Below, piece after piece: positions 3,833 to 51,868 of a stretch of 64,000 nucleotides of DNA. The stretch comes from Escherichia coli (GTDB lineage Bacteria > Pseudomonadota > Gammaproteobacteria > Enterobacterales > Enterobacteriaceae). The notes under the pieces are model-generated. The model was given only the letters and a program-made list of their open reading frames with translations. It was not told the origin of the DNA and did not search any database. The DNA lies in assembly GCF_013315695.1 (NCBI RefSeq), contig NZ_CP054353.1; one strand, given 5' to 3'. Each line of letters opens with the position of its first letter. Position 1 is the first letter of the stretch. Made by a program: the position numbers and the translations under genes.

Positions 3833-3901
3833 TCCATAACGGTGGTTTCTGTTTTCTCTTATTAATGATTATTCCATTTTTATTATCAGGAAGGAATTAC
3901 T

Positions 3902-5356
3902 ATGTCTTTATCTCGCGCAGCGATTGTCGACCAGCTAAAGGAAATTGTTGGTGCAGATCGCGTAATTACCGATGAAACAGTATTAAAGAAAAACAGTATT
4001 GACCGTTTTCGCAAATTTCCGGATATTCATGGCATTTATACTTTGCCTATTCCGGCAGCGGTCGTAAAACTCGGTTCCACAGAGCAAGTGTCCCGTGTGC
4101 TGAATTTTATGAATGCGCACAAAATTAACGGTGTGCCGCGTACCGGTGCTTCCGCTACCGAAGGTGGACTGGAAACCGTTGTGGAAAACTCGGTAGTGCT
4201 TGATGGCTCTGCAATGAATCAAATCATTAATATTGATATAGAGAATATGCAGGCGACGGCGCAATGTGGTGTTCCGCTGGAGGTGCTGGAAAACGCGTTG
4301 CGTGAAAAAGGTTACACCACGGGGCATTCACCGCAATCAAAACCGCTGGCGCAGATGGGCGGCCTGGTAGCAACCCGCAGTATCGGGCAGTTCTCCACAC
4401 TCTACGGCGCAATCGAAGATATGGTCGTTGGTCTGGAAGCAGTATTGGCTGATGGCACCGTAACACGTATTAAAAACGTGCCACGCCGCGCGGCTGGCCC
4501 GGACATTCGTCACATTATCATCGGCAACGAAGGTGCATTGTGCTATATCACTGAAGTAACAGTGAAAATCTTTAAGTTCACCCCGGAAAACAACCTCTTC
4601 TACGGCTATATCCTGGAAGATATGAAAACCGGCTTCAACATCCTGCGTGAAATCATGGTGGAAGGGTATCGTCCGTCGATTGCTCGTTTGTATGATGCTG
4701 AAGATGGCACCCAACACTTCACCCATTTTGCCGACGGCAAATGCGTGCTGATCTTTATGGCTGAAGGTAACCTTCGCATTGCGAAGGCGACGGGCGAAGG
4801 GATTGCTGAAATCGTGGCACGTTACCCGCAATGCCAGAGCGTGGACAGCAAGCTGATCGAAACCTGGTTTAACAACCTGAACTGGGGACCGGATAAAGTG
4901 GCTGCCGAACGTGTGCAGATCCTCAAAACCGGCAACATGGGCTTTACCACCGAAGTGTCCGGCTGCTGGAGCTGCATTCACGAAATCTACGAAAGCGTTA
5001 TTAACCGTATTCGTACCGAGTTCCCGCACGCCGACGACATCACCATGCTGGGCGGTCACTCCTCTCATAGCTATCAGAACGGCACCAACATGTACTTCGT
5101 CTACGACTACAACGTCGTTGACTGTAAGCCGGAAGAGGAAATCGACAAGTACCACAATCCGCTCAACAAAATCATCTGCGAAGAAACCATTCGCCTCGGC
5201 GGTTCGATGGTGCACCACCACGGTATTGGTAAACATCGCGTTCACTGGAGCAAACTGGAACACGGCAGCGCGTGGACGTTGCTGGAAGGGCTGAAAAAAC
5301 AGTTCGATCCTAACGGCATTATGAATACGGGTACTATCTATCCGATTGAAAAATAA
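3902..5356 (+). CDS. ygcU: FAD-linked oxidase/dehydrogenase (484 aa)
   Basis: 484-aa ORF with an FAD-binding PCMH-type N-terminal region; RBS AGGAAGG upstream. Confidence 0.85.
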   Translation: MSLSRAAIVDQLKEIVGADRVITDETVLKKNSIDRFRKFPDIHGIYTLPIPAAVVKLGSTEQVSRVLNFMNAHKINGVPRTGASATEGGLETVVENSVVLDGSAMNQIINIDIENMQATAQCGVPLEVLENALREKGYTTGHSPQSKPLAQMGGLVATRSIGQFSTLYGAIEDMVVGLEAVLADGTVTRIKNVPRRAAGPDIRHIIIGNEGALCYITEVTVKIFKFTPENNLFYGYILEDMKTGFNILREIMVEGYRPSIARLYDAEDGTQHFTHFADGKCVLIFMAEGNLRIAKATGEGIAEIVARYPQCQSVDSKLIETWFNNLNWGPDKVAAERVQILKTGNMGFTTEVSGCWSCIHEIYESVINRIRTEFPHADDITMLGGHSSHSYQNGTNMYFVYDYNVVDCKPEEEIDKYHNPLNKIICEETIRLGGSMVHHHGIGKHRVHWSKLEHGSAWTLLEGLKKQFDPNGIMNTGTIYPIEK

Positions 5357-36967: not shown

Positions 36968-37561
36968 ATGAAACTGATCGTCGGGATGACAGGGGCTACC
37001 GGTGCGCCTCTTGGTGTGGCATTACTGCAAGCGCTGCGGGAGATGCCGAATGTCGAGACTCATCTGGTGATGTCGACGTGGGCGAAAACCACCATTGAAC
37101 TGGAAACGCCTTACAGCGCTCGCGATGTTGCTGCCCTCGCAGACTTCAGCCATAACTCGGCGGATCAGGCGGCGACCATCTCCTCAGGTTCCTTTCGTAC
37201 CGACGGCATGATCGTTATTCCGTGCAGTATGAAAACGCTCGCCGGTATCCGTGCCGGTTACGCCGATGGCCTGGTAGGGCGCGCGGCGGACGTCGTGCTC
37301 AAAGAAGGCCGCAAACTGGTGCTGGTGCCGCGTGAAATGCCGCTTAGCACCATCCATCTCGAAAATATGCTCGCACTTTCGCGCATGGGCGTGGCGATGG
37401 TGCCGCCGATGCCTGCCTTTTATAACCATCCCGAAACGGTAGATGACATTGTCCAGCACGTGGTAGCCCGCGTGCTGGATCAATTTGGCCTCGAACATCC
37501 TCACGCCAGGCGCTGGCAAGGATTGTCGCAGACCCGGAATTTTTCTCAGGAGAATGAATAA
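36968..37561 (+). CDS. ecdB: UbiX-like flavin prenyltransferase (prenyl-FMN synthase), decarboxylase subunit B
   Basis: 197-aa ORF MKLIVGMTGATGAPLGV... with UbiX/Pad1 flavoprotein signature. Confidence 0.85.
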   Translation: MKLIVGMTGATGAPLGVALLQALREMPNVETHLVMSTWAKTTIELETPYSARDVAALADFSHNSADQAATISSGSFRTDGMIVIPCSMKTLAGIRAGYADGLVGRAADVVLKEGRKLVLVPREMPLSTIHLENMLALSRMGVAMVPPMPAFYNHPETVDDIVQHVVARVLDQFGLEHPHARRWQGLSQTRNFSQENE

Positions 37562-38988
37562 TGGCATTTGATGATTTACGCAGCTTTTTACAGGCGCTCG
37601 ACGACCATGGGCAATTGCTGAAAATCAGCGAAGAGGTGAACGCAGAACCGGATCTGGCAGCCGCAGCCAACGCCACCGGGCGTATCGGCGACGGCGCGCC
37701 AGCGCTGTGGTTTGATAATATTCGCGGCTTTACCGATGCCCGCGTGGCGATGAACACCATCGGTTCCTGGCAGAACCACGCGATTTCCCTCGGCCTGCCG
37801 CCAAATACCCCGGTTAAAAAACAGATCGATGAGTTTATCCGCCGCTGGGACAACTTCCCGATTGCCCCGGAACGCCGAGCCAATCCAGCCTGGGCGCAGA
37901 ACACCGTCGATGGAGACGAGATCAACCTGTTCGATATCCTGCCGCTGTTTCGTTTAAACGATGGCGATGGCGGTTTCTATCTCGACAAAGCGTGCGTGGT
38001 TTCCCGCGATCCGCTTGATCCGGATAACTTCGGCAAGCAGAACGTCGGTATCTACCGCATGGAAGTGAAGGGCAAACGTAAGCTCGGCCTGCAACCGGTG
38101 CCGATGCACGATATCGCCCTGCATCTGCATAAAGCGGAAGAGCGCGGTGAAGATCTGCCGATTGCGATCACCCTCGGTAACGATCCGATCATCACGCTGA
38201 TGGGGGCCACGCCGCTGAAATATGATCAGTCCGAGTACGAAATGGCAGGCGCGCTGCGTGAAAGCCCGTACCCGATCGCCACCGCCCCGCTGACTGGTTT
38301 TGATGTGCCGTGGGGTTCAGAAGTGATCCTCGAAGGGGTTATCGAAAGTCGTAAACGTGAGATCGAAGGGCCGTTCGGTGAGTTTACCGGCCACTACTCC
38401 GGTGGGCGCAACATGACCGTGGTGCGCATCGATAAAGTCTCTTACCGCACGAAACCGATTTTCGAATCGCTGTACCTCGGCATGCCGTGGACGGAAATCG
38501 ACTATCTGATGGGGCCAGCCACCTGCGTGCCGCTGTATCAGCAACTGAAAGCCGAGTTCCCGGAAGTGCAGGCGGTGAACGCCATGTACACCCACGGCCT
38601 GCTGGCGATTATCTCCACCAAAAAACGCTACGGTGGCTTTGCCCGCGCGGTGGGCCTGCGTGCGATGACCACGCCGCACGGTCTGGGCTATGTGAAGATG
38701 GTGATTATGGTCGATGAAGACGTTGATCCGTTCAACCTGCCGCAGGTGATGTGGGCGCTCTCCTCGAAAGTGAACCCGGCAGGGGATTTGGTGCAGTTGC
38801 CGAATATGTCCGTGCTGGAACTCGACCCAGGCTCAAGCCCGGCGGGGATCACCGACAAGCTGATTATCGACGCCACCACGCCTGTCGCCCCGGACAACCG
38901 TGGTCACTACAGTCAGCCGGTGGTGGATTTACCGGAAACCAAAGCCTGGGCTGAAAAACTGACCGCTATGCTGGCCGCACGTCAATAA
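37561..38988 (+). CDS. ecdC: UbiD-family (prenyl-FMN-dependent) aromatic acid decarboxylase subunit C
   Basis: 475-aa UbiD-family ORF; start overlaps the ecdB stop. Confidence 0.85.
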   Translation: MAFDDLRSFLQALDDHGQLLKISEEVNAEPDLAAAANATGRIGDGAPALWFDNIRGFTDARVAMNTIGSWQNHAISLGLPPNTPVKKQIDEFIRRWDNFPIAPERRANPAWAQNTVDGDEINLFDILPLFRLNDGDGGFYLDKACVVSRDPLDPDNFGKQNVGIYRMEVKGKRKLGLQPVPMHDIALHLHKAEERGEDLPIAITLGNDPIITLMGATPLKYDQSEYEMAGALRESPYPIATAPLTGFDVPWGSEVILEGVIESRKREIEGPFGEFTGHYSGGRNMTVVRIDKVSYRTKPIFESLYLGMPWTEIDYLMGPATCVPLYQQLKAEFPEVQAVNAMYTHGLLAIISTKKRYGGFARAVGLRAMTTPHGLGYVKMVIMVDEDVDPFNLPQVMWALSSKVNPAGDLVQLPNMSVLELDPGSSPAGITDKLIIDATTPVAPDNRGHYSQPVVDLPETKAWAEKLTAMLAARQ

Positions 38989-38998
38989 GGAGAACAAG

Positions 38999-39235
38999 AT
39001 GATTTGTCCACGTTGTGCTGATGAACAGATTGAAGTGATGGCGAAATCGCCGGTAAAAGATGTCTGGACGGTCTACCAGTGCCAGCATTGCCTCTATACC
39101 TGGCGCGATACCGAACCGCTGCGCCGCACCAGCCGCGAACATTATCCCGAAGCGTTCCGCATGACGCAGAAAGATATTGATGACGCGCCGATGGTGCCGA
39201 GCATCCCGCCGCTGCTGGCGGAAGGTAAGCGCTAA
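38999..39235 (+). CDS. ecdD: Small zinc-ribbon decarboxylase subunit D
   Basis: 78-aa ORF with CPRC...CQHC cysteine pairs; last gene of the ecdBCD-type operon. Confidence 0.75.
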   Translation: MICPRCADEQIEVMAKSPVKDVWTVYQCQHCLYTWRDTEPLRRTSREHYPEAFRMTQKDIDDAPMVPSIPPLLAEGKR

Positions 39236-39240
39236 ATAAA

Positions 39241-39268
39241 AGGTCCGATGCCCATCGGACCTTTTTAT
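39241..39268. terminator. Bidirectional terminator between convergent ecdD and ygbN
   Basis: AAAA-GGTCCGATG-cc-CATCGGACC-TTTTT: 9-bp stem flanked by A and T runs. Confidence 0.6.
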
Positions 39269-39273
39269 TAAGG

Positions 39274-40638
39274 TCAAATTACCGCCCATACGCACCAGGT
39301 AATTAAGAATCCGGTAAAACCGAGAATGGTCGTTAACACTGTCCAGGTTTTCAGACCGTCTGCTACCGACAACCCCAGATATTTGGTCACAATCCAGAAC
39401 CCTGAGTCATTAATATGTGACGCGCCAAGCCCACCAAAGCAGGCTGCCAGCGTCACCAATACGCACTGAATCGGATTCAATCCCATCACCGCTTCTGAGA
39501 GTAACCCGCCGGTTGTCAGGATTGCTACGGTTGCTGACCCCTGCGATGCACGCAGCGCCAGTGAAATAATAAATGCGGCTGGTAACAGAGGCAGGTCAAT
39601 CATTTGTAGCATGTTGGCAAGGGCTTTGCCGACGCCCGATTCCACCAGCACTTTGCCAAATACCCCTCCAGCACCAGTAACCAAAATCACTACCGCCGCG
39701 GTGGGAAGGGCTGAGCCCATAATGTCGCTGGTGTGTTGTAAGCTCCAGCCGCGACGTAAAGCCAATAACCAGAATGCCAGCACCAGCGCAATCATTAGAG
39801 CTACCATTGGTGAGCCGATCAGCTGTAGCGTACCAAGCAGGGGATGCGAAGGCGGCATCAGTGTTGCGGAAACCGTACCCGCCATGATAATCGCGATAGG
39901 AATAACAATTAGCGAGGTGACCAGCGCGACGCCCGGTGGATTTATTTTATCGCTTAATTTTGTCGCGCCTTCCTCACTGGCCGGAGCCAGTTGCATCTGT
40001 TCCAGTACTTCCACCGACATCGCATATTGGCGCTTATTGATTATTTTCGCTGCAAAGTAGCCAACAATCCCTACGGGAATAGAAATCGCAATACCGATGA
40101 TGGTTAGCCAGCCGATGTCTGCGTGGAGTAACCCCGCTGCGGCGACAGGGCCTGGATGCGGCGGTACCGCCACATGAACAGTTAGCATGATTCCAGCGAC
40201 AGGCAGGCCAAATTTGAGTGGCGATATTTTGGCAACCTTGGCAAAACCGTAAATGATTGGCGCAAGAATAATAAAGCCGACATCAAAGAAGACGGGGATA
40301 CCGAGGAAGAACGCTGCCAGAGTCAGCGCAGCGATAGTTCGTTTGTCACCTAACTTGCGACTGAAATAATTAGCCAGTGACTCTGCACCACCAGAGTGTT
40401 CGATCATACGCCCCAGCATAGCGCCCAGACCAATAATAATAGTGACGGAACCAAGCACACCGCCCATCCCGGCGATCATCACTTTACCCACTTCGCCCGC
40501 CGGTATACCCGCCGCAAGTGCGACTAACAGGCTGACGAGGAGCAGAGCAACGAATGGTTGTACCTTTGCCTTGATGACCAGCAGCAACAGCATGATTACG
40601 CCAGTTAACGCAATGCATAACAATGTAATTGTGGACAT
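39274..40638 (-). CDS. ygbN: GntP-family permease
   Basis: 454-aa hydrophobic ORF with GntP-family topology; first gene of the minus-strand ygbJKLMN cluster. Confidence 0.85.
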   Translation of the reverse strand: MSTITLLCIALTGVIMLLLLVIKAKVQPFVALLLVSLLVALAAGIPAGEVGKVMIAGMGGVLGSVTIIIGLGAMLGRMIEHSGGAESLANYFSRKLGDKRTIAALTLAAFFLGIPVFFDVGFIILAPIIYGFAKVAKISPLKFGLPVAGIMLTVHVAVPPHPGPVAAAGLLHADIGWLTIIGIAISIPVGIVGYFAAKIINKRQYAMSVEVLEQMQLAPASEEGATKLSDKINPPGVALVTSLIVIPIAIIMAGTVSATLMPPSHPLLGTLQLIGSPMVALMIALVLAFWLLALRRGWSLQHTSDIMGSALPTAAVVILVTGAGGVFGKVLVESGVGKALANMLQMIDLPLLPAAFIISLALRASQGSATVAILTTGGLLSEAVMGLNPIQCVLVTLAACFGGLGASHINDSGFWIVTKYLGLSVADGLKTWTVLTTILGFTGFLITWCVWAVI

Positions 40639-40726
40639 GGGAAACCCTGTCTGAAAGTTATAGTTAACCTACCCCATCCGTAGATGGGGGGATGTATGGG
40701 TACGTTGTAATTAGGGATTTAACGAA

Positions 40727-41503
40727 TTAGCGCCAGGCGTCAAACCAGCCAAGCCCTTCTTCGGTGAGGCCACGAGGTTTATATTCACAACCGATCCAGC
40801 CCTGATATCCCACCTCATCGAACAGGCGGAACAGCCACGGATAGTTGATTTCTCCATCGTCCGGTTCATGTCGATCAGGTAGTCCGGCAATTTGTACGTG
40901 CGCATATTTCCCGGCGTAGTCGCGGATTAAATGCGTCAGGTTGCCATCTACTTTTTGCGCATGAAAAGTATCTAGTTGAATAAACACGTTATCTCGCGCA
41001 ACTTCTTCAACAATAGCCAGTGCCTGATACTGGCTGGAGAAGAGATAATGAGGCTTAACGCCGGGGCTGAGTGCTTCAACTAATATTCGCTTGCCGTGTG
41101 GCGCAAAGCGGTCGGCAGCGTAGCGGAGATTATCGATAAATACTGCCCTGTACCGTTCAGCATCTTCGCCAGCGGGCACGACGCCTGCCATCACATGGAC
41201 TTGTTCACAATTGAGCGCCAATGCATATTCCAGTGCCAGGTCGATGTCTGCGTGTGCTTCGTGCTCACGTCCGGGAAGGGCGGATAATCCCCATTCCCCC
41301 GCATTAATATCTCCGGGAGCGGTATTGAACAGCGCCAGTGTCAGATGGTTTTGCTCCAGTTGCTTTTGGATTTGCAGGGTGGAGTAGTTATAGGGAAACA
41401 GAAATTCCACAGCATCGAACCCGGCTTTTCGCGCTGCGGCGAAGCGTTCAATAAAAGGCACTTCGGTGAACATCATGGATAAATTAGCTGCAAAACGAGG
41501 CAT
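40727..41503 (-). CDS. ygbM: Hydroxypyruvate isomerase-like TIM-barrel isomerase (2-oxo-tetronate isomerase type)
   Basis: 258-aa [32 protein letters not shown]..., xylose-isomerase-like fold. Confidence 0.8.
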
Positions 41504-41507
41504 TGCA

Positions 41508-42146
41508 TTAACTCCTTAATTCCGCAATTTCACCTGCGGTCAGATAACGGATCGGGCGGTCACCGAGAATAAAAATCAGCTTTGCCGTTTCCTCCAGCTC
41601 TTCCATATTGTTGGCGGCTTCTTGCAGGCTTTCACCGCAAACCACTGGGCCATGATTTGCCAGTAAAAAAGCCTGATTGTCTGCTGCCAGTTCCGCCAGA
41701 TCCTGTGCGATGCGTTTATCGCCCGGTCGGTAATAAGGCACCAGCGGGATATTTCCCATCCGCATCACCACGTATGGTGTGAACGGACGAATAACGTTGC
41801 TGCTGTCCAGCCCTTGCAGGCAGGAAAGCGCCGTCGACCATGTGCTGTGCAAATGCACCACCGCTTTACAGCGCGGATTGTTGCGATACAGCGCCAGATG
41901 AAAGAGCACCTCTTTCGAGGGTTTGTCACCACTTAACCATTCGCCATCCGCGGCGACTTTGGAAAGCCGCTGCGGATCGAGATTGCCCAGGCATGAACCT
42001 GTCGGTGTCGCCAGTAAATTCCCGTCAGGTAAAAGCAGCGACAGATTGCCAGCCGAACCGGTTGCATAGCCGCGCTGAAAGAATGAACTGGCAATCCGCG
42101 TCATCTCCTCTCGCAAAGACTGCTCTACTTTTGCGAAATCGCTCAT
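41508..42146 (-). CDS. ygbL: Class II aldolase/adducin-family protein (3-oxo-tetronate 4-phosphate decarboxylase type)
   Basis: 212-aa ORF in the class II aldolase family; overlaps the ygbK stop. Confidence 0.8.
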
Positions 42147-43405
42147 GATAAAAACTCTCTTTGGGCTCGTGAAAAAAAGGCTTCATCACCGAAGTTGCCA
42201 GATTTAAGGGCGAGTGAGACAGGCTTATCCAGTGCGTTTACCCACGGCACGCCAGGGGAAATGGTTGGGCCAATATGAAACCCTTTTATTCCCAGGCTCT
42301 GTGTGACTACGCCGGAGGTCTCACCGCCTGCGACAATAAAGCGTGTCACGCCTTCCGCTGCTAACCGCGCCGCTAGTTGAGAAAACAGTGTTTCTACTGC
42401 CTGACTGGCTTTTTGTGCACCGTATTGCTGTTGAATTGCTGCCAATGCGTCAGTGCTTGCGGTGGCAAAAACCAGTGGAGCAAGTACACTTTCCTGGCCC
42501 AGAACCCACTCTGCCAGTTCGTGTGCATAAGCGGCCAGAGTTTCAATTGAGAGGCAGCGTGCCACATCAACTTCACGGGCTGGTGCAATTTGACGGTAAT
42601 GTGCTACCTGGCGGTTGGTCATTTGAGAGCATGAACCGGAGAGCACTACGCCGCGCCCAGCGAGCGGATGCCCTGCTTTGCGAGCCTGGTTACCGTTTTC
42701 TTGCGCCCACTGCCGGGCAAGGCCAATCGCCAGACCAGAACCGCCCGTTACCAGTGGGGCATCGCGCAAGGCTTCTCCCTGAATTTCCAGATGGTATTCG
42801 GTCAGCGCATCAAGCACCGCGTAGCGGTAGCCCTCTTGCTGTAAGCGAGCCAGCTCTTGACGAACGGCATCCACACCTTGTTCGAAAACATGTGCCGAAA
42901 CGACGCCGCAGCGCCCTGTGGATTGCGCTTCAACCAGACGGGGAAGATAGCTGTCGGTCATGGGATTTACCGGGTGATGGCGCATCCCGGATTCGGCCAG
43001 CAGTTGATTCATTACGAACAAATACCCCTGATAAACCGTACGTCCGTTGACCGGCAGGGCCGGAGAGAAGACCGTAAACGGCGTGTCGAGAGCATCCATT
43101 AATGCATCGGTAACCGGGCCGATATTACCTTTCGCCGTACTGTCGAAAGTAGAGCAGTATTTGAAATAGATCTGTTTGCAACCTTGCTGTTGCAACCAGC
43201 TCAGAGCCGCCAGCGATTGCTGTGTGGCTTCAACCACCGGACAGGAACGCGTTTTCAGGCTGATCACCAGTGCGTCGATTGCTTCCGGCATTTTACCTGT
43301 TGGAACACCGTTAATTTGTACCGTTGGTAGACCGTTTTCCACCAGAAAACTGGCGATATCCGTCGCGCCGGTAAAATCATCGGCGATAACGCCAATCTTG
43401 ATCAT
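42143..43405 (-). CDS. ygbK: Four-carbon acid sugar kinase (3-oxo-tetronate kinase type)
   Basis: 420-aa ORF MIKIGVIADDFTGATD... (DUF1537/DUF2090-type kinase); ATGA overlap with ygbJ. Confidence 0.8.
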   Translation of the reverse strand: MIKIGVIADDFTGATDIASFLVENGLPTVQINGVPTGKMPEAIDALVISLKTRSCPVVEATQQSLAALSWLQQQGCKQIYFKYCSTFDSTAKGNIGPVTDALMDALDTPFTVFSPALPVNGRTVYQGYLFVMNQLLAESGMRHHPVNPMTDSYLPRLVEAQSTGRCGVVSAHVFEQGVDAVRQELARLQQEGYRYAVLDALTEYHLEIQGEALRDAPLVTGGSGLAIGLARQWAQENGNQARKAGHPLAGRGVVLSGSCSQMTNRQVAHYRQIAPAREVDVARCLSIETLAAYAHELAEWVLGQESVLAPLVFATASTDALAAIQQQYGAQKASQAVETLFSQLAARLAAEGVTRFIVAGGETSGVVTQSLGIKGFHIGPTISPGVPWVNALDKPVSLALKSGNFGDEAFFSRAQREFLS

Positions 43406-44310
43406 GATTTCGCTCCCGGTAGAGTGATGCCAGAGAAAATCTTGATAACTGCGCTATCGTCTTCTTTCCCGTAACCCGCGTTACTGGCGCTGGTGAACAT
43501 ATTCAATGCTGTTGAGGCCAATGGCAGCGGGAAGTGCAGGGCTTTGGCTGTATCGGCAACCAGACCAAGATCCTTAACAAAAATATCGACGGCTGAATGC
43601 GGGGTGTAATCGCCATCCACCACATGACGCATCCGGTTTTCGAACATCCAGGAATTTCCGGCGGCATTGGTCACGACGTCATACATCACATCCAGCGGGA
43701 TCCCCGCACGGGCTGCAAGTGCCATCGCTTCGGCTCCGGCAGCAATATGTACGCCCGCTAACAACTGGTGAATAATTTTTACGGTCGAACCTGGTCCCGG
43801 TTCTGCACCTATGCGATAAACTTTTCCGGCAACGGCTTCCAGCACGGGTGCCAGTCGTTCAAAGGCAATATCGCTACCGGAGGCCATGACAGTCATTTCA
43901 CCGTTAGCGGCTTTTACTGCACCACCAGAAACTGGCGCATCCAGCATTTCCAGATCGAATCCAGCCAGAGCGGTAGCAATTTCTTGCGCATCAGCACTAG
44001 CGATAGTGGAAGAAACCATTACTGCCGTACCGGGTTTCAGATGTTGTGCAACGCCTGTTTCACCAAACAGCACCTGTTTAACCTGGGCCGCATTGACCAC
44101 CAGCACCAGCAGAGCGTCCAGTTTTTCGGCAAACGTCGCGGCGTTATCAGAAACCCCGCAAGCACCTGCCTCTTTCAACGTAGCGCAGGCATTGCTGTTC
44201 AGGTCTGCGCCCCAGGTAGAAAGACCTGCGCGGACACATGACAGTGCTGCTCCCATTCCCATTGACCCTAAGCCAACGATACCGACATGAAACTCAGATC
44301 CCGTTTTCAT
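43402..44310 (-). CDS. ygbJ: NAD-dependent 3-hydroxyisobutyrate dehydrogenase-family enzyme (L-threonate dehydrogenase type)
   Basis: 302-aa ORF with N-terminal Rossmann motif VGIVGLGSMGMGAA. Confidence 0.85.
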   Translation of the reverse strand: MKTGSEFHVGIVGLGSMGMGAALSCVRAGLSTWGADLNSNACATLKEAGACGVSDNAATFAEKLDALLVLVVNAAQVKQVLFGETGVAQHLKPGTAVMVSSTIASADAQEIATALAGFDLEMLDAPVSGGAVKAANGEMTVMASGSDIAFERLAPVLEAVAGKVYRIGAEPGPGSTVKIIHQLLAGVHIAAGAEAMALAARAGIPLDVMYDVVTNAAGNSWMFENRMRHVVDGDYTPHSAVDIFVKDLGLVADTAKALHFPLPLASTALNMFTSASNAGYGKEDDSAVIKIFSGITLPGAKS

Positions 44311-44381
44311 CTGCTCTCCTTGTTAATTTAAGTGATATTTTGTTTGATATTGTGAATATAAGCGCTGGAAGATAACGATAT

Positions 44382-44397
44382 GGTGAGCTGATTCACA
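44382..44397. promoter_or_regulatory. CRP-like site in the ygbJ/ygbI divergent region
   Basis: GGTGAGCTGATTCACA matches TGTGA-N6-TCACA with one mismatch; additional TGTGAA motifs at 44351 and 44423 may be DeoR-type operator repeats. Confidence 0.3.
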
Positions 44398-44475
44398 AAA
44401 ATTAACATTGTGTGTTATTTTATGTGAACTAAGCGTTAGTTGCGCCGCGCACGTTTCGCAGGCAAATAGCGTAGA

Positions 44476-45273
44476 ATGTCAGCAGGACAAAGGAAGGAGC
44501 AAAAGTTGATACCCGTAGAGCGTCGCCAAATCATCCTTGAGATGGTAGCTGAAAAAGGCATTGTCAGTATTGCTGAACTAACGGACAGAATGAATGTGTC
44601 ACATATGACCATTCGTCGGGATTTACAAAAACTGGAGCAGCAGGGAGCCGTTGTGCTGGTGTCCGGAGGCGTCCAGTCTCCGGGACGCGTGGCGCATGAA
44701 CCTTCTCATCAGGTAAAAACTGCGCTGGCAATGACGCAAAAAGCGGCTATTGGCAAGCTGGCGGCAAGTCTTGTTCAGCCGGGAAGTTGTATCTATCTGG
44801 ATGCGGGAACGACCACGCTAGCGATAGCACAGCATCTGATTCACATGGAGTCACTGACTGTGGTCACAAACGATTTCGTTATTGCGGACTACTTGCTCGA
44901 CAACAGTAATTGCACAATTATTCACACTGGCGGTGCAGTGTGTCGGGAAAACCGTTCCTGTGTCGGGGAAGCCGCTGCGACCATGCTGCGCAGCCTGATG
45001 ATTGATCAGGCTTTTATTTCTGCATCGTCATGGAGTGTGCGGGGGATTTCTACGCCAGCGGAAGATAAAGTCACGGTGAAACGGGCGATTGCCAGTGCCA
45101 GCCGCCAGCGAGTTTTGGTCTGTGATGCGACGAAATATGGTCAGGTGGCGACATGGCTGGCGTTACCATTAAGCGAGTTTGATCAGATTATTACAGACGA
45201 CGGTTTGCCGGAGAGTGCCAGTCGCGCGCTGGCGAAGCAGGATCTCTCTTTGCTGGTAGCGAAAAATGAATAA
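44476..45273 (+). CDS. ygbI: DeoR-family transcriptional regulator
   Basis: N-terminal HTH (SIAELTDRMNVSHMTIRRDL) plus DeoR C-terminal sensor domain; an alternative TTG start 10 codons downstream (MIPVERRQ...) follows a GGAGG-like RBS. Confidence 0.8.
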   Translation: MSAGQRKEQKLIPVERRQIILEMVAEKGIVSIAELTDRMNVSHMTIRRDLQKLEQQGAVVLVSGGVQSPGRVAHEPSHQVKTALAMTQKAAIGKLAASLVQPGSCIYLDAGTTTLAIAQHLIHMESLTVVTNDFVIADYLLDNSNCTIIHTGGAVCRENRSCVGEAAATMLRSLMIDQAFISASSWSVRGISTPAEDKVTVKRAIASASRQRVLVCDATKYGQVATWLALPLSEFDQIITDDGLPESASRALAKQDLSLLVAKNE

Positions 45274-46085: not shown

Positions 46086-48647
46086 TTACACCAGACTCTT
46101 CAAGCGATAAATCCACTCCAGCGCCTGACGCGGAGTCAGTGAATCCGGGTCGAGGTTTTCCAGTGCCTCGACCGCAGGCGAAGTTTCTTCTGGTACGGAC
46201 AGCAAAGACATCTGCGTGCCATCCACTTGCGTAGCGGCGGCGTTCGGCGAAATGCTTTCCAGCTCACGCAGTTTTTGCCGTGCGCGCTTAATCACCTCTT
46301 TTGGCACGCCCGCCAGAGCAGCAACCGCCAGGCCGTAGCTTTTGCTCGCCGCGCCGTCCTGTACGCTGTGCATAAAGGCGATGGTGTCGCCGTGCTCCAG
46401 CGCATCGAGGTGCACGTTAGCCACGCCTTCCATTTTCTCCGGCAGTTGAGTCAGCTCGAAGTAATGGGTGGCAAACAACGTCAATGCCTTAATCTTATTC
46501 GCCAGATTTTCAGCGCACGCCCACGCCAGCGACAGACCATCGTAAGTGGACGTTCCACGCCCAATCTCATCCATCAACACCAGGCTGTACTCCGTGGCGT
46601 TATGCAGAATATTGGCGGTTTCGGTCATCTCCACCATAAAGGTTGAACGCCCGGATGCCAGATCGTCAGCCGCGCCCACACGGGTAAAGATACGGTCAAT
46701 CGGGCCAATCTCGACTTTTTGCGCCGGTACGTAGCTGCCGATATAGGCCATCAGCGCAATCAGTGCGGTCTGGCGCATATAGGTACTTTTACCGCCCATG
46801 TTCGGACCGGTGATGATCAACATGCGACGCTGCGGCGACAGGTTCAGCGGGTTAGCGATAAACGGCTCATTCAGTACCTGTTCAACTACCGGATGGCGAC
46901 CTTCGGTAATGCGAATACCCGGTTTATCAATGAAGGTCGGGCAGGTGTAGTTCAGGGTATAGGCCCGTTCCGCCAGGTTCACCAGTACGTCGAGTTCTGC
47001 CAGTGCGCTCGCGCTCTGTTGCAACGTTTCCAGATGCGGCAACAGCAGGTCGAACAACTCTTCATAAAGCTGTTTTTCCAGTGCCAGTGCTTTACCTTTC
47101 GAGGTGAGTACTTTGTCTTCATACTCTTTTAGCTCTGGAATAATGTAGCGTTCGGCGTTTTTCAGCGTCTGGCGACGCATATAGTTGATGGGTGCCAGAT
47201 GGCTTTGTCCACGGCTGATCTGAATGTAATAACCATGAACCGCGTTAAAGCCGACTTTCAGCGTGTCCAGGCCAGTACGTTCACGCTCGCGGACTTCCAG
47301 ACGCTCCAGATAATCGGTCGCGCCGTCAGCCAGCGCGCGCCACTCATCCAGCTCTTCGTTATAGCCCGGTGCGATAACACCACCGTCGCGTACCAGCACT
47401 GGCGGTGTGTCGATGATTGCTCGCTCCAGCAGATCGCGCAGCTCGGCAAACTCGCCCATTTTTTCACGCAGCGCCTGTACCGGAGCGCTATCGACATTTT
47501 CTAATAGTGCACGCAGCTCCGGCAGTTGCTGGAAAGCGTGACGCATACGGGCCAGATCGCGTGGGCGAGCAGTTCGTAAAGCCAGACGCGCCAGAATACG
47601 TTCCAGGTCGCCGACCTGACGCAGTACCGGCTGCAGCTCGGCGGTGAAATCCTGCAATGCGCCAATAGTTTGCTGGCGCTCAAGCAACACGCGGGTATCG
47701 CGCACTGGCATATGCAGCCAGCGTTTCAGCATACGGCTGCCCATCGGCGTGACGGTGCAGTCGAGCACAGAAGCCAGCGTATTTTCCGCACCACCCGCCA
47801 GATTCTGGGTGATTTCCAGGTTACGACGCGTCGCGGCATCCATAATGATGCTGTCCTGCTCACGTTCCATAGTGATAGAACGAATATGCGGCAGGGTCGT
47901 GCGTTGGGTATCTTTCGCATATTGCAACAGACAACCGGCGGCACAAAGTCCGCGCGGTGCGTTCTCGACGCCAAAACTGACCAGATCGCGAGTGCCAAAT
48001 TGCAGGTTTAACTGCTGGCGCGCGGTGTCGATTTCAAACTCCCACAGCGGGCGACGACGCAGGCCGCGGCGACCTTCAATCAGCGACATCTCGGCGAAAT
48101 CTTCCGCATACAGTAATTCCGCTGGATTCGTACGTTGCAGTTCTGCCGCCATCGTTTCGCGGTCCGCCGGTTCGCTCAGGCGAAAACGACCGGAACTGAT
48201 ATCCAGCGTTGCGTAGCCGAAACCTTTACTGTCCTGCCAGATAGCCGCCAGCAGGTTGTCCTGACGTTCCTGCAACAGTGCTTCATCGCTGATGGTGCCC
48301 GGCGTAACGATACGGACAACTTTGCGCTCGACCGGCCCTTTGCTGGTCGCTGGATCGCCAATTTGTTCGCAGATGGCAACGGACTCGCCCTGGTTCACCA
48401 GTTTGGCGAGGTAGTTTTCCACCGCATGGTAGGGAATCCCCGCCATCGGGATTGGCTCTCCCGCTGAAGCACCGCGTTTGGTCAGTGAAATATCCAGCAG
48501 TTGCGACGCCCGTTTTGCGTCGTCATAAAACAGTTCATAAAAGTCGCCCATCCGGTAAAACAGCAGGATCTCGGGATGCTGGGCTTTCAGCTTGAGATAT
48601 TGCTGCATCATGGGCGTATGGGCATCGAAATTTTCTATTGCACTCAT
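46086..48647 (-). CDS. mutS: DNA mismatch repair protein MutS
   Basis: 853-aa ORF with Walker [10 protein letters not shown] and the MutS domain series. Confidence 0.95.
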
Positions 48648-48893
48648 GGGGTTATGTCCGGTTCCCTGATATTAAATGGGGTGTGATGGTTTTTATTTTC
48701 GTTGTTATCACATAAGGCGCACATGATACCGGAGTTAATCATTTCAGGGGAAGAAGCGAACGGCGAGTTCTTGATGGTGATTCCGGGAAAGATGCTGTTT
48801 TGCAGCTTTTGCGTGATGCTTATGAAGCAAGTACGCAAAATTGCGTCGGTTGAATAAACCTCCTCCTTCAGAGCCATAGTCCCCTTTCAAATT

Positions 48894-48916
48894 AAGTTGT
48901 AATATAAATACACCTT
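48894..48916. promoter_or_regulatory. NsrR-like inverted repeat upstream of ygbA
   Basis: AAGTTGTAATATAAATACACCTT resembles the 11-1-11 NsrR box (AAGATGCATTT-N-AAATGCATCTT) and sits 18 bp upstream of the ygbA start; ygbA as an NsrR regulon member is established knowledge. Confidence 0.35.
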
Positions 48917-48933
48917 AAGAGTATGGAGGCAGC

Positions 48934-49278
48934 ATGTCCGGCAAGCGTATCTCTCGTGAAAAACTGACGATTAAAAAAATGATCGATCTTTATCAAGCGA
49001 AATGCCCGCAGGCGTCAGCAGAGCCGGAGCATTACGAGGCGTTGTTTGCTTACGCGCAAAAGCGGCTGGATAAATGTGTGTTCGGCGAAGAGAAACCAGC
49101 CTGTAAGCAGTGTCCGGTGCACTGTTACCAGCCAGCAAAGCGTGAAGAGATGAAACAGATTATGCGTTGGGCCGGGCCGCGAATGCTGTGGCGTCATCCG
49201 ATCTTAACCGTGCGTCATCTCATCGATGACAAGCGTCCGGTGCCGGAGTTGCCAGAAAAATATCGTCCAAAGAAATAA
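48934..49278 (+). CDS. ygbA: Nitrous oxide-stimulated promoter family protein (YgbA-like, Cys-rich)
   Basis: 114-aa ORF with GGAGG RBS and CxxC motifs (CKQCPVHCY). Confidence 0.8.
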   Translation: MSGKRISREKLTIKKMIDLYQAKCPQASAEPEHYEALFAYAQKRLDKCVFGEEKPACKQCPVHCYQPAKREEMKQIMRWAGPRMLWRHPILTVRHLIDDKRPVPELPEKYRPKK

Positions 49279-49282
49279 ATCT

Positions 49283-49305
49283 GCCGGAGAGCCATACTCT
49301 CCGGC
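49283..49305 (-). terminator. Terminator hairpin downstream of the molbindin gene (minus strand)
   Basis: GCCGGAGAG-CCATA-CTCTCCGGC; on the minus strand it is followed by a U-rich tract (AGAUUUAUUUCUUU). Confidence 0.45.
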
Positions 49306-49316
49306 AAATAAGGCGT

Positions 49317-49745
49317 TTACGCTTTGGTGGCAATCAGGATGGCTGATGCTTTGATCAATGCAATAACGCGCGAGCCAGTGGTGAGTTTCATTTCATCCTG
49401 ACTTTCATTTGTTACCACTGCCACAATTTCAAAACCCGCATCCGTTTTGATATGGACAGTGGCGTTCACTGCGCCTTCGGTGATTGTCGACACGCTGCCA
49501 GCAAACTGGTTGCGAGCAGAGAATTTCAGTCCACAGTCTTCCGTTGCCAGTGTTACCCACGGGGCTTTAATCAGGGCAATCGCTTCTTTCCCTTTTGCCA
49601 GACCAAGAGCCTGCTGGCTGCTGTGTGTAACAATTGCCACCAGCTTTGCACCACCTGCCAGCGTCAGTTCTACTTCATCATTCACAGCGCCCATTGCTAC
49701 TGCGCTAACTGTTCCGGTTAATTGATTTCTTGCTGAAACTGCCAT
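49317..49745 (-). CDS. Tandem TOBE-domain molybdate/tungstate-binding protein (molbindin, Mop-like), 142 aa
   Basis: Two TOBE repeats each starting with the SARNQ signature (MAVSARNQLTGTVSAV... and KFSARNQFAGSVSTI...); start placed at the ATG 7 nt after AAAGGAGG (the track ORF from 49784 is over-extended); 44 bp downstream of fhlA on the same strand with no intervening terminator. Confidence 0.8.
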   Translation of the reverse strand: MAVSARNQLTGTVSAVAMGAVNDEVELTLAGGAKLVAIVTHSSQQALGLAKGKEAIALIKAPWVTLATEDCGLKFSARNQFAGSVSTITEGAVNATVHIKTDAGFEIVAVVTNESQDEMKLTTGSRVIALIKASAILIATKA

Positions 49746-49789
49746 ACTGCCTCCTTTCATTGAATGTTGATCGAGTATAACCACATCTG

Positions 49790-51868
49790 TTAAATCAATG
49801 CCGATTTATCAATTCCCAGTCGCTTCATCCGTGACAGCAGAGTCGTGCGTTTCAGCCCCAGACGTTGCGCAGCGCCTTTAGGCCCGGCAACCACGCCGTT
49901 TGTTTCTTTCAGCACGCGAACAATCAACTGATATTCATCTTCGCCCTCCTGGGCGACAACCGTTGCGGCAGGCGGCGTTTCAGGTTCTGGTAAAGCAATA
50001 TCTGGCAATGACAGCTGCAGCACGTTGCCGCGTGTTAGCAATACCGCGCGCTCGATGACGTTTTCCAGCTCACGCACGTTGCCCGGCCATTCCATGTTGC
50101 TCAGGATGCGCAGCGTCTCGGCAGGAATGCTGTCGATATTGCGCCCCAGACGACGGGCAATTTTGAAGGTAAAGGCTTTCGCCAGCAGCGGAATATCTTC
50201 CGGACGCTCGCGTAGTGGCGGCAGGTGGATCGGGAATACGTTCAGGCGGTAATAGAGATCACTACGGAACTCTCGGTCGGCGACCATTTTTTTCAGATCG
50301 CGGTTAGTCGCGGCAATTAAACGTACGTCCGTCTGAATGATTTTGTTGCTGCCGAGGCGTTCAAACTCCTGTTCCTGTAATACACGCAGCAACTTCGGCT
50401 GTAACTCCAGCGGCATATCGCCCACTTCGTCGAGGAACAGGGAGCTTTTATCCGCCAGTTCAAAACGACCAATGCGCTGGGCGCTGGCACCGGTAAAAGC
50501 CCCACGCTCATGACCAAACAGATCGCTCTCCAGCAATCCGGCAGGCATCGCCGCGCAGTTCATTTTTACCATGCGGCGATTATTACGCCCACTGAGATTA
50601 TGGATAGCACGGGCAATCAGCTCTTTACCCGTGCCAGTTTCACCGAGGATCAGCACGGTACTGTCACTTTGCGCCACCATTTCAACTTGTTTAAGCACGC
50701 TGTACATGGCTTCGCTGCGGCCAATAATCTCGCCAAATTCACTATCAACATTGTTGAGCTGCTCGGTCAGGGCGAGGTTTTCATCAACCAGCCGTTCTTT
50801 CAGACGATGGATTTCCTGATAGGCGAGGGCGTTATCGACAGCGATTGCCACACGTTCGGCAATCTGGCGCAGTAAATTCAGATTGGTAGTGGTAAACACT
50901 TTCTCTTCGCATTGCGCCAGTTTCAGCACGCCCAGCATGGTGTCGCCAGACATCAGCGGTAACAGGCACAAGGTTTGAATCTGGTTGCCCCAGGTGTCGA
51001 ACAACATGCGTTCATAGGGGGCTAAATCGTCCCGCTCGTGGAGATTAATCAACAGCATCTCTTTACTTTTGAAGACGCGTTCGGTGAGGGTTCCGGCTTC
51101 ATCGACTTCGCTCTGTTCGTGGGCGGGATGCTGTTTATCAAGATAGTGAGTGGAGTAGATGTTGAGTTTGTTTTTACGGTGGCTGCGTAAGACGATGCTG
51201 ATATCGTCAATGTCGAAGTAGTAATGGATTTCTTTGGCGACTTCGCTGACCAGTTCGTCCATATCCAGGCGGGAAAGCACCGCGTTGGTAATGGCAACCA
51301 GGATGCGGAAGTTATCGCGCTCCCGGCATAACAACTCATAGTCGACATTGTTAACGACGCGGCTCTGGATTTGTTCGGTGACGACCGAAACGATCTGCGT
51401 AAATGTTTGCAGACGATTGAACTCTTTTTCGCTCCAGGGGCGATCGTCATAACGAATAAATTCACAGCCACCAAAAATATGCCCTTCCGCCGCCAGTGGC
51501 ATCAGGCAATAGTGACCAAATTTGGGGTATAGTCCACCTGCGGCCAGCTGCGGCCAGGTTTCACAAAATTCTTCGTAACTGCAATGCAGCGTATCAGGGC
51601 GCGACAAAATGCTGCGTACCGGACCGTGTGCCAGAACAGTTTCGTCTTCATATTTAATGGGGGTGTCTTTTTCACGCGACGCGTAATAAGACGCACGTTG
51701 AGTCTGCGCTTGCCACAACACAATAGCCGCGTTGTCGGCGAGCGCAGAACGCTTTACCAGTTGCGAAAGAGCCTCACACAGCGAGGCCAGATCGGGCTGC
51801 TGCAATAGTGTCCGAGTGATGTCGAACAACCCTTGTTGTCCGAGATCACTCATCGGTGTATATGACAT
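49790..51868 (-). CDS. fhlA: Formate hydrogenlyase transcriptional activator (sigma-54 enhancer-binding protein)
   Basis: 692 aa from MSYTPMSDLGQQ...; GAF domains, AAA+ sigma-54 activation domain (GETGTGKE, GAFTGA) and C-terminal HTH. Confidence 0.9.
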   Translation of the reverse strand: MSYTPMSDLGQQGLFDITRTLLQQPDLASLCEALSQLVKRSALADNAAIVLWQAQTQRASYYASREKDTPIKYEDETVLAHGPVRSILSRPDTLHCSYEEFCETWPQLAAGGLYPKFGHYCLMPLAAEGHIFGGCEFIRYDDRPWSEKEFNRLQTFTQIVSVVTEQIQSRVVNNVDYELLCRERDNFRILVAITNAVLSRLDMDELVSEVAKEIHYYFDIDDISIVLRSHRKNKLNIYSTHYLDKQHPAHEQSEVDEAGTLTERVFKSKEMLLINLHERDDLAPYERMLFDTWGNQIQTLCLLPLMSGDTMLGVLKLAQCEEKVFTTTNLNLLRQIAERVAIAVDNALAYQEIHRLKERLVDENLALTEQLNNVDSEFGEIIGRSEAMYSVLKQVEMVAQSDSTVLILGETGTGKELIARAIHNLSGRNNRRMVKMNCAAMPAGLLESDLFGHERGAFTGASAQRIGRFELADKSSLFLDEVGDMPLELQPKLLRVLQEQEFERLGSNKIIQTDVRLIAATNRDLKKMVADREFRSDLYYRLNVFPIHLPPLRERPEDIPLLAKAFTFKIARRLGRNIDSIPAETLRILSNMEWPGNVRELENVIERAVLLTRGNVLQLSLPDIALPEPETPPAATVVAQEGEDEYQLIVRVLKETNGVVAGPKGAAQRLGLKRTTLLSRMKRLGIDKSALI

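Follow-up and report, generated by a model that had tools for sequence, protein, structure and literature searches.

A predicted ModG-type molbindin gene next to fhlA in Escherichia coli: conserved in Enterobacteriaceae, deleted in the K-12 lineage

Behind fhlA, the gene for the transcriptional activator of formate hydrogenlyase (FHL), some strains of Escherichia coli carry a small gene that is absent from K-12, which raises the question of what its product does and how it came to stand there. The case that we analyzed lies in a 64,000-nucleotide (nt) stretch of E. coli contig NZ_CP054353.1 (assembly GCF_013315695.1), referred to here as the window, in which the gene, called mop below, encodes a protein of 142 amino acids. 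The reading that we consider probable is that this protein is a cytoplasmic molbindin of the ModG type that buffers molybdate/tungstate, and that its gene is ancestral, conserved, and dispensable and was lost in the K-12 lineage.

The original prediction, made from the letters of this stretch, placed a tandem-TOBE molbindin with a SARNQ signature in each domain 44 nt after fhlA on the same strand, with no terminator in between and a terminator of its own behind it. Profile matches bear out the protein, and our consensus scan and RNA folding bear out the layout. Pfam finds the TOBE domain (PF03459) twice, at residues 4-66 (E 1.6e-17) and 76-137 (E 6.2e-16), and the NCBIfam model TIGR00638 ("Mop"), whose cutoff is 55, gives 142 bits. 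The NCBIfam ModE model NF007957 reaches 88 bits against a cutoff of 369, with only profile positions 124-261 matched, and the ModC/WtpC models give 47-49 bits, far under their cutoffs (285-440 bits). Among PDB sequences the best match is Azotobacter vinelandii ModG (1H9J/1H9K/1H9M; E 5e-33, residues 1-140), followed by the di-Mop part of E. coli ModE (E ~1e-15) and then by single-domain Mop/Tub proteins. An AlphaFold2 monomer model built on a 20-sequence alignment has a mean predicted local distance difference test score of 96.3 and shows five strands and a short helix per domain, in keeping with the OB-like beta-barrel of Mop domains. When this model was searched with Foldseek, it superposed on ModG (1H9J/1H9K) with a template modeling (TM) score of 0.94-0.95, a root-mean-square deviation of 1.3 Å and 48% identity, and on the ModE di-Mop with a TM score of 0.88-0.90; Mop and Tub were also found. 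Judged by these matches, the protein is a ModG-type molbindin made of two TOBE domains and no other domain. It is assigned to ModG and not to ModE because it has no DNA-binding domain, and it is not a transporter subunit because it has no ATPase domain.

The residues expected to hold an oxyanion are kept in both halves of the protein. We used an alignment of 20 sequences, ModG among them, and a comparison with ModG, ModE, and orthologues that range from Escherichia to Burkholderiales and a metagenome-assembled genome of Fibrobacteres. In domain 1, S4, R6, N7, G19-A20-V21-N22, T40, S43, and K60-A61 are invariant or nearly so, with S4, R6, N7, G19, V21, T40, S43, and K60 strictly invariant; the corresponding set in domain 2 is S76, R78, N79, G91-A92-V93-N94, T112, S115, and K132-A133, with S76, R78, N79, G91, A92, T112, K132, and A133 strictly invariant. 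The domain-1 motif residues align with S126, R128, T163, S166, K183, and A184 of ModE, which we take from the ModE structures to be its molybdate ligands. Domain 2 keeps SARNQ, GAVN, TNES, and KAS where the ModE equivalents read NADNQ, GAEQ, PVN, and NAD, and both domains are thus predicted to be ligand-competent, unlike those of ModE.

The extent of the gene is well supported. Its translation runs MAVSARNQ...ATKA over 142 codons from an ATG at 49745, and the RefSeq coding sequence WP_000301062.1, annotated in a strain whose locus is 100% identical, has the same extent. The fhlA stop codon occupies 49790-49792, which leaves 44 nt to the ATG; on the coding strand this gap reads CAGATGTGGTTATACTCGATCAACATTCAATGAAAGGAGGCAGT. 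The block (A/T)GGAGGCA(G/A)T-ATG, which holds the Shine-Dalgarno sequence and the start codon, is kept across genera, and every homologue starts M-x-x-SARN, in support of the 142-residue form. An upstream GTG start, which would give 155 amino acids, was rejected on the Shine-Dalgarno sequence, the RefSeq annotation, and the alignment of homologues, all of which back the ATG. RefSeq calls the product "TOBE domain-containing protein"; in the E. coli genomes it bears this name or "molybdopterin-binding protein", and all of the database names are automatic. A 2020 paper noted the gene between fhlA and ygbA in some Escherichia and labelled it modE (PMC7232297). We regard this label, the JGI name "molybdate transport system regulatory protein", and "transporter" as misnomers, the first two because the predicted protein lacks the winged-helix DNA-binding domain.

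To ask how old the association with fhlA is, we looked beyond E. coli. Homologues with 77-96% identity occur in E. albertii, E. fergusonii, Citrobacter, some serovars of Salmonella, Klebsiella/Raoultella, Kluyvera, Pluralibacter, Enterobacter, Lelliottia, Yokenella, Kosakonia, and Pantoea. For synteny we took one genome per GTDB species, 49 loci in all, and located the neighbors by tblastn with FhlA, HypE, YgbA, and MutS from the window. The order hypE-fhlA-mop is found at 36 of the 49 loci, spread over ~12 genera, with the end of fhlA lying 30-110 nt upstream on the same strand. At three loci (two Phytobacter and Kosakonia sp. S29) fhlA is absent and hypE is followed directly by mop; the other 10 show different gene contexts. 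The same position is occupied in E. albertii and in a cryptic Escherichia, and the same hyp-fhlA-mop order recurs on E. fergusonii-type and Raoultella contigs, with sitABCD inserted between mop and ygbA in Raoultella. Pairwise ratios of nonsynonymous to synonymous substitution (dN/dS) against orthologues are 0.028-0.085 where dS, which rises to >1, is not saturated, and the GC content of mop (50%) is close to that of fhlA (52%). Horizontal acquisition was rejected on GC content, synteny, and selection. The same three lines of evidence indicate that the gene is old, native, and under strong purifying selection, and that the K-12 state is therefore a secondary loss.

The E. fergusonii-type contigs (L005/L006, 2721-6429) show a pattern of their own. 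HypE there is 99-100% identical to that of the window and FhlA only 91% identical in protein, while mop is 76% identical in DNA with saturated synonymous sites. The contrast points to recombination with a breakpoint between hypE and fhlA, or else to a fhlA-mop-ygbA haplotype that has diverged.

Within E. coli the gene is a presence/absence polymorphism with two main states. When 49279-49789 was searched by megablast in 5,426 complete E. coli genomes, the mop segment was found in 1,892 (35%), always as one chromosomal copy, with query coverage of at least 80% in all but three of the carriers (1,889/1,892). ST131 is among them, and so is IAI39; K-12 and O157:H7, which lack the gene, have identical sequences at the locus (PMC7232297). 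The flanking sequence, ygbA with the fhlA 3′ end, is found in 5,419 genomes, and the interval that lacks the gene is 466 bp shorter. In a K-12 derivative only a related hairpin lies between ygbA and fhlA. A 70-nt probe for the K-12 junction has matches of at least 95% identity in 3,502 genomes, so that 5,394 of the 5,426 genomes have either the gene or this one specific deletion. From these alignments we conclude that the K-12 lineage lost mop through a single old deletion of ~466 bp. The survey across genomes that the original prediction had called for thus finds the gene to be variable at the fhlA-ygbA junction, and its claim that K-12 lacks the gene is correct. Its description of the gene as "appended" to the operon has to be reversed, as mop is ancestral, with fhlA upstream in 36 of the 49 species representatives, and the K-12 state is a deletion.

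We next consider how mop may be transcribed. It sits in the hyp-fhlA operon as a last gene would, on the same strand, behind a strong Shine-Dalgarno sequence, after a short gap without a terminator, and with a strong terminator following it. A consensus scan of the fhlA-mop gap found neither a terminator-like site nor a sigma-70-like promoter, and RNA running from the end of fhlA across the gap into mop folds no better than its shuffles (z = +0.5). The terminator behind mop has a 14-pair stem followed by UUUAUUUCUU; it folds at -25.4 kcal/mol on the minus strand (z = -5.2) and also on the plus strand behind ygbA, at -24.0 kcal/mol (z = -5.6). A separate scan for a canonical sigma-70 promoter yields a -10-like box only, without a credible -35. 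This hexamer (TATACT or TATAAA, 5/6) lies exactly 28 nt from the ATG, despite diverged flanks, in Escherichia, Citrobacter, Pseudocitrobacter, Pluralibacter, and two unnamed Enterobacteriaceae; in Kluyvera, E. soli, and Lelliottia its distance from the ATG is 40-43 nt, and in the last two it takes the form of a TGn extended -10. Read-through from fhlA in this window is plausible on these signals, as is a weak promoter belonging to mop itself.

Other candidate signals were set aside. In the gap, GGTTATAC resembles a ModE half-site by eye; this operator was rejected after a scan of 49283-49900 for the ModE box TATAT-N7-TAYAT returned no site with up to two mismatches, and the would-be second half-site is not conserved between genera. 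A sigma-54 promoter (GG-N10-GC) near TGGC/TGGT was rejected as well, the spacing and the -12 element being a misfit in E. coli and Citrobacter. A riboswitch or other known RNA, such as the Moco riboswitch, was rejected for 48600-50200, in which no Rfam family matches at E ≤ 1.

By analogy with the crystal structures of A. vinelandii ModG, we infer that three chains assemble into a pseudo-hexamer of Mop domains, which would have sites for as many as eight molybdate or tungstate oxyanions. Two of the sites would lie on the threefold axis and be formed by backbone amides of the GAVN loops; the other six would lie at subunit interfaces and draw on Ser/Arg of SARNQ, Thr/Ser of VTxxS, and the Lys-Ala of KAP/KAS. 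Such a molbindin would buffer or store cytoplasmic molybdate (or tungstate) and feed molybdenum-cofactor synthesis. Such a role is biologically plausible, as FHL needs molybdenum and di-TOBE proteins of the ModG/TudG type are classed among molybdenum/tungsten storage proteins (PMC11980592). In this E. coli the gene is probably transcribed at least in part by read-through from fhlA, so that more of the protein would be made when the formate regulon, to which the molybdenum-dependent FDH-H belongs, is induced.

A number of findings weigh against this picture, and we gather them here. Mod transport genes, which adjoin modG in A. vinelandii, are not among the neighbors of mop, where hyp-fhlA and ygbA or sitABCD are found instead. 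The sequence would fit molybdate or tungstate alike, so that a preference between the two cannot be read from it. Searches of the literature on molbindin/fhlA, ModG/Mop, mopI, and the sitA/fhlA context turned up no functional study of the gene. The gene is dispensable: about 65% of complete E. coli genomes are without mop, yet K-12 has an active FHL. Nor is linkage to FHL obligatory. At five loci (L020, L036, L041, L046, L053) the gene is kept without an adjacent fhlA. Raoultella sp. BIGb0138 has lost all of fhlA but the last ~50 nt and retains the gap and mop; Enterobacter sp. BIGb0383 has mop and lacks fhlA; and in Serratia, Cedecea, and Edwardsiella an orthologue (68-73% identity) stands alone among unrelated genes. 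The copy on a Salmonella island, described below, likewise speaks against a strict link to fhlA. The -10-like box argues for at least partly independent transcription and so weakens the case for co-transcription with fhlA. In a Lelliottia sp. (L039, 3914-3935) a terminator-like hairpin, ACCCTCTCC-GGGG-GGAGAGGGT, with a 9-pair stem and a T-run, lies between fhlA and mop and is followed by the extended -10-like TGTTATAAA, which implies that mop is transcribed independently in that genus. Because of the -10-like box, the Lelliottia terminator, and the loci without fhlA, fhlA-mop co-transcription is not a conserved requirement. The FHL-specific storage or sensing role put forward in the original prediction is speculative, and it is weakened by the same findings and by the stand-alone copies.

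The adjacency could also be read as regulatory, in line with the "sensing factor" of the original prediction, the protein being a molybdate-sensing accessory factor for FHL expression that contacts FhlA or ModE, or competes with ModE for molybdate, and thereby tunes hyc/fdhF activation. Genes are known to be gained and lost often in the fhlA-mutS interval (PMC7232297), yet the tight adjacency of mop to fhlA has persisted there, and hyc/fdhF expression depends on molybdate through ModE, full expression needing ModE-molybdate together with FhlA and formate (PMC3149613). The resemblance of the window protein to the ModE sensor domain (34-36% identity, TM ~0.9) fits as well. A Mop protein of Rhodobacter capsulatus reportedly interacts with the ModE-like regulator MopB. 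However, the window protein lacks a DNA-binding domain, molybdate control of FHL operates in K-12 in the absence of the gene, the fhlA-mop intergenic region holds no ModE box at up to two mismatches, and mop outlasts the loss of fhlA and occurs alone in Serratia, Cedecea, and Edwardsiella; synteny within the family may reflect vertical inheritance alone. We therefore think a regulatory partner unlikely. The wider proposal that mop is an ancestral molybdate/tungstate-sensing part of the enterobacterial FHL regulon, one that modulates FhlA- or ModE-dependent expression or channels molybdenum to FDH-H, we hold to be quite unlikely.

Two further explanations concern the ligand and the age of the gene. 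As a "TudG", the protein would preferentially sequester tungstate, either to protect molybdoenzymes such as FDH-H from mis-metallation in the gut or to supply a tungsten enzyme. Mop/TOBE sites bind both oxyanions, the ModE di-Mop having been solved with tungstate (1H9R) and Eubacterium limosum Tub with eight tungstates, and di-TOBE storage architectures occur in more predicted tungsten-using than molybdenum-using species (PMC11980592). Against this, the sequence does not discriminate tungsten from molybdenum, the loci examined have neither a tupABC tungsten transporter nor a tungstoenzyme gene nearby, and the best homologue is a molybdate-binding protein, which makes a dedicated tungstate role very unlikely in our estimate. 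That mop is a recently acquired accessory gene, or a decaying and functionless remnant in E. coli, might be suggested by its presence in only 35% of complete genomes and by the Salmonella copies that sit on an island beside an IS21 fragment. The gene nonetheless holds the same position across Escherichia, Citrobacter, Klebsiella/Raoultella, Kluyvera, Enterobacter, Kosakonia, and others, and it has native GC content, low dN/dS (0.028-0.085), an intact open reading frame (ORF) in 1,889 of 1,892 carriers, and one deletion junction. We give this explanation next to no credence and, on these sequence comparisons, take it to be already refuted by the synteny and selection data.

If the buffering or delivery of molybdenum/tungsten by a ModG-type molbindin is true, it could explain differences between strains in molybdoenzyme activity (FDH-H and the nitrate, dimethyl sulfoxide, and trimethylamine N-oxide reductases) when, in the gut or urinary tract, molybdenum is scarce or cells are exposed to tungstate. 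Two points give the locus its interest, the family-wide attachment of mop to fhlA and its absence from the strain used for work on FHL and molybdate. Nearly all E. coli work on molybdate control of FHL and on molybdenum homeostasis was done in K-12, which carries the deletion; most other Enterobacteriaceae, together with ST131 and IAI39, retain a ModG-type binder at the 3′ end of fhlA. Were the FHL-regulon sensing proposal true, the K-12-based model of molybdate control would describe a derived state from which one player has been lost. The analysis also corrects misleading database names.

Two of the unusual settings of mop are described here in more detail. On Salmonella enterica contigs (L003/L004, 5940-6429 and flanks) the gene lies on an island away from fhlA, among an IS21 IstB fragment, a CaiF/GrlA-family regulator, a fimbrial usher, and a YedY/MsrP-like molybdoenzyme pair, and ~60 nt upstream of the island copy, homologous to the fhlA-mop gap of Citrobacter, came along with it. 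The second setting is that of Phytobacter and Kosakonia sp. S29 (L041, L046, L053, ~3880-3960), where the hypE-mop gap holds a near-perfect palindrome, CTATACCCAT-N9-ATGGGTATAG, without a T-run, which could be a protein-binding site.

Coordinates of mop, its predicted domains and signals, and the adjoining genes in the window
Feature	Position	Strand	Details
modG-like (di-Mop molbindin) coding sequence, mop	49317..49745	minus	142 amino acids plus stop; from ORF and translation
TOBE/Mop domain 1	49548..49736	minus	residues 4-66; SARNQ 4-8, GAVN 19-22, T40/S43, K60-A61
TOBE/Mop domain 2	49335..49520	minus	residues 76-137; SARNQ 76-80, GAVN 91-94, T112/S115, K132-A133
Shine-Dalgarno AAAGGAGG	49750..49757	minus	4 nt before the mop ATG; read from sequence
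-10-like hexamer TATACT	49774..49779	minus	28 nt upstream of ATG; candidate own promoter
fhlA-mop intergenic region	49746..49789	minus	44 nt, without terminator
Bidirectional intrinsic terminator	49279..49309	both	common to mop (minus) and convergent ygbA (plus)
fhlA, formate hydrogenlyase transcriptional activator	49790..51868	minus	692 amino acids, MSYTPMSDLG...SALI; RefSeq annotation of identical region
ygbA, convergent downstream neighbor	48934..49278	plus	114 amino acids in window vs 117 in K-12

The 3′ end of ygbA and the terminator that it shares with mop differ between gene-carrying and K-12-type alleles. In the window allele (49270-49278 and 49279-49309) YgbA ends ...RPKK and the hairpin arms are GCCGGAGAG/CTCTCCGGC; in the K-12 allele (L002, 1836-1890) it ends ...KKPHE and the arms are GCCGGACAG/CTGTCCGGC. 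Between the two sets of arms there is a compensatory G-C to C-G swap that preserves the stem. Antisense to mop, 49447-49725 on the plus strand contains two overlapping ORFs of 89-92 amino acids; they are most probably spurious, a by-product of the conserved coding strand. A small plus-strand ORF between mutS and ygbA (48723-48857, MIPELIISGEEANGEF..., 44 amino acids) is a RefSeq hypothetical protein in both carrier and K-12-type strains. Farther away, from mutS/pphB to rpoS (~36968-45273), the window differs from strain ECCNB12-2, which is 100% identical to it at the mop locus. In ECCNB12-2 (L001, 1-2004) pphB is directly adjoined by the genes for hydroxyarylic acid decarboxylase; in the window, ORFs of matching size (197 and 475 amino acids) lie ~6 kb further off, with six other ORFs between.

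Set against known systems, the window protein comes closest to A. vinelandii ModG, the prototype of the tandem-Mop cytoplasmic molbindins, with which it shares length, architecture, 48% identity over the full length, and the SARN, GAVN, VTxxS, and KA(P/S) motifs in both domains. It differs in that its gene follows fhlA and hyp and not mod transport genes, and in that its host does not fix nitrogen; ModG is a trimer with eight sites, and the window protein is known here from its sequence and a monomer model. The di-Mop part of E. coli ModE (1H9R/1H9S, 1O7L, 1B9M) has the same tandem-Mop fold, at the identity and TM values given above, but is preceded by an N-terminal winged-helix DNA-binding domain, whereas the window protein begins at its first Mop domain; the ligand residues of ModE domain 1 align one to one, and ModE domain 2 is degenerate where that of the window protein is not. 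Likeness to the TOBE domain of the ModC/WtpC ATPases of ATP-binding cassette transporters is weak (3D31, E 4e-4), and the window protein has no ATPase domain. The single-domain Mop/Tub proteins (Clostridium pasteurianum MopII, 1GUG; Sporomusa ovata Mop, 1FR3; E. limosum Tub, 9BEB) match each domain separately (E 2e-9 to 3e-5, 30-40% identity, TM ~0.9), and the expected oxyanion sites are common to both; these are chains of ~70 amino acids that form hexamers, to which a trimer of the fused two-domain protein would be equivalent. The gene has already been annotated and noted in passing, and it is an otherwise uncharacterized member of a known molybdenum/tungsten storage class, not a new system. 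Di-TOBE "TudG/ModG" proteins are classed as molybdenum/tungsten storage proteins in a study of gut bacteria whose supplement counts 5,379 of them in 148 species representatives and names TOBE proteins from species of Citrobacter, Klebsiella, and Escherichia (PMC11980592).

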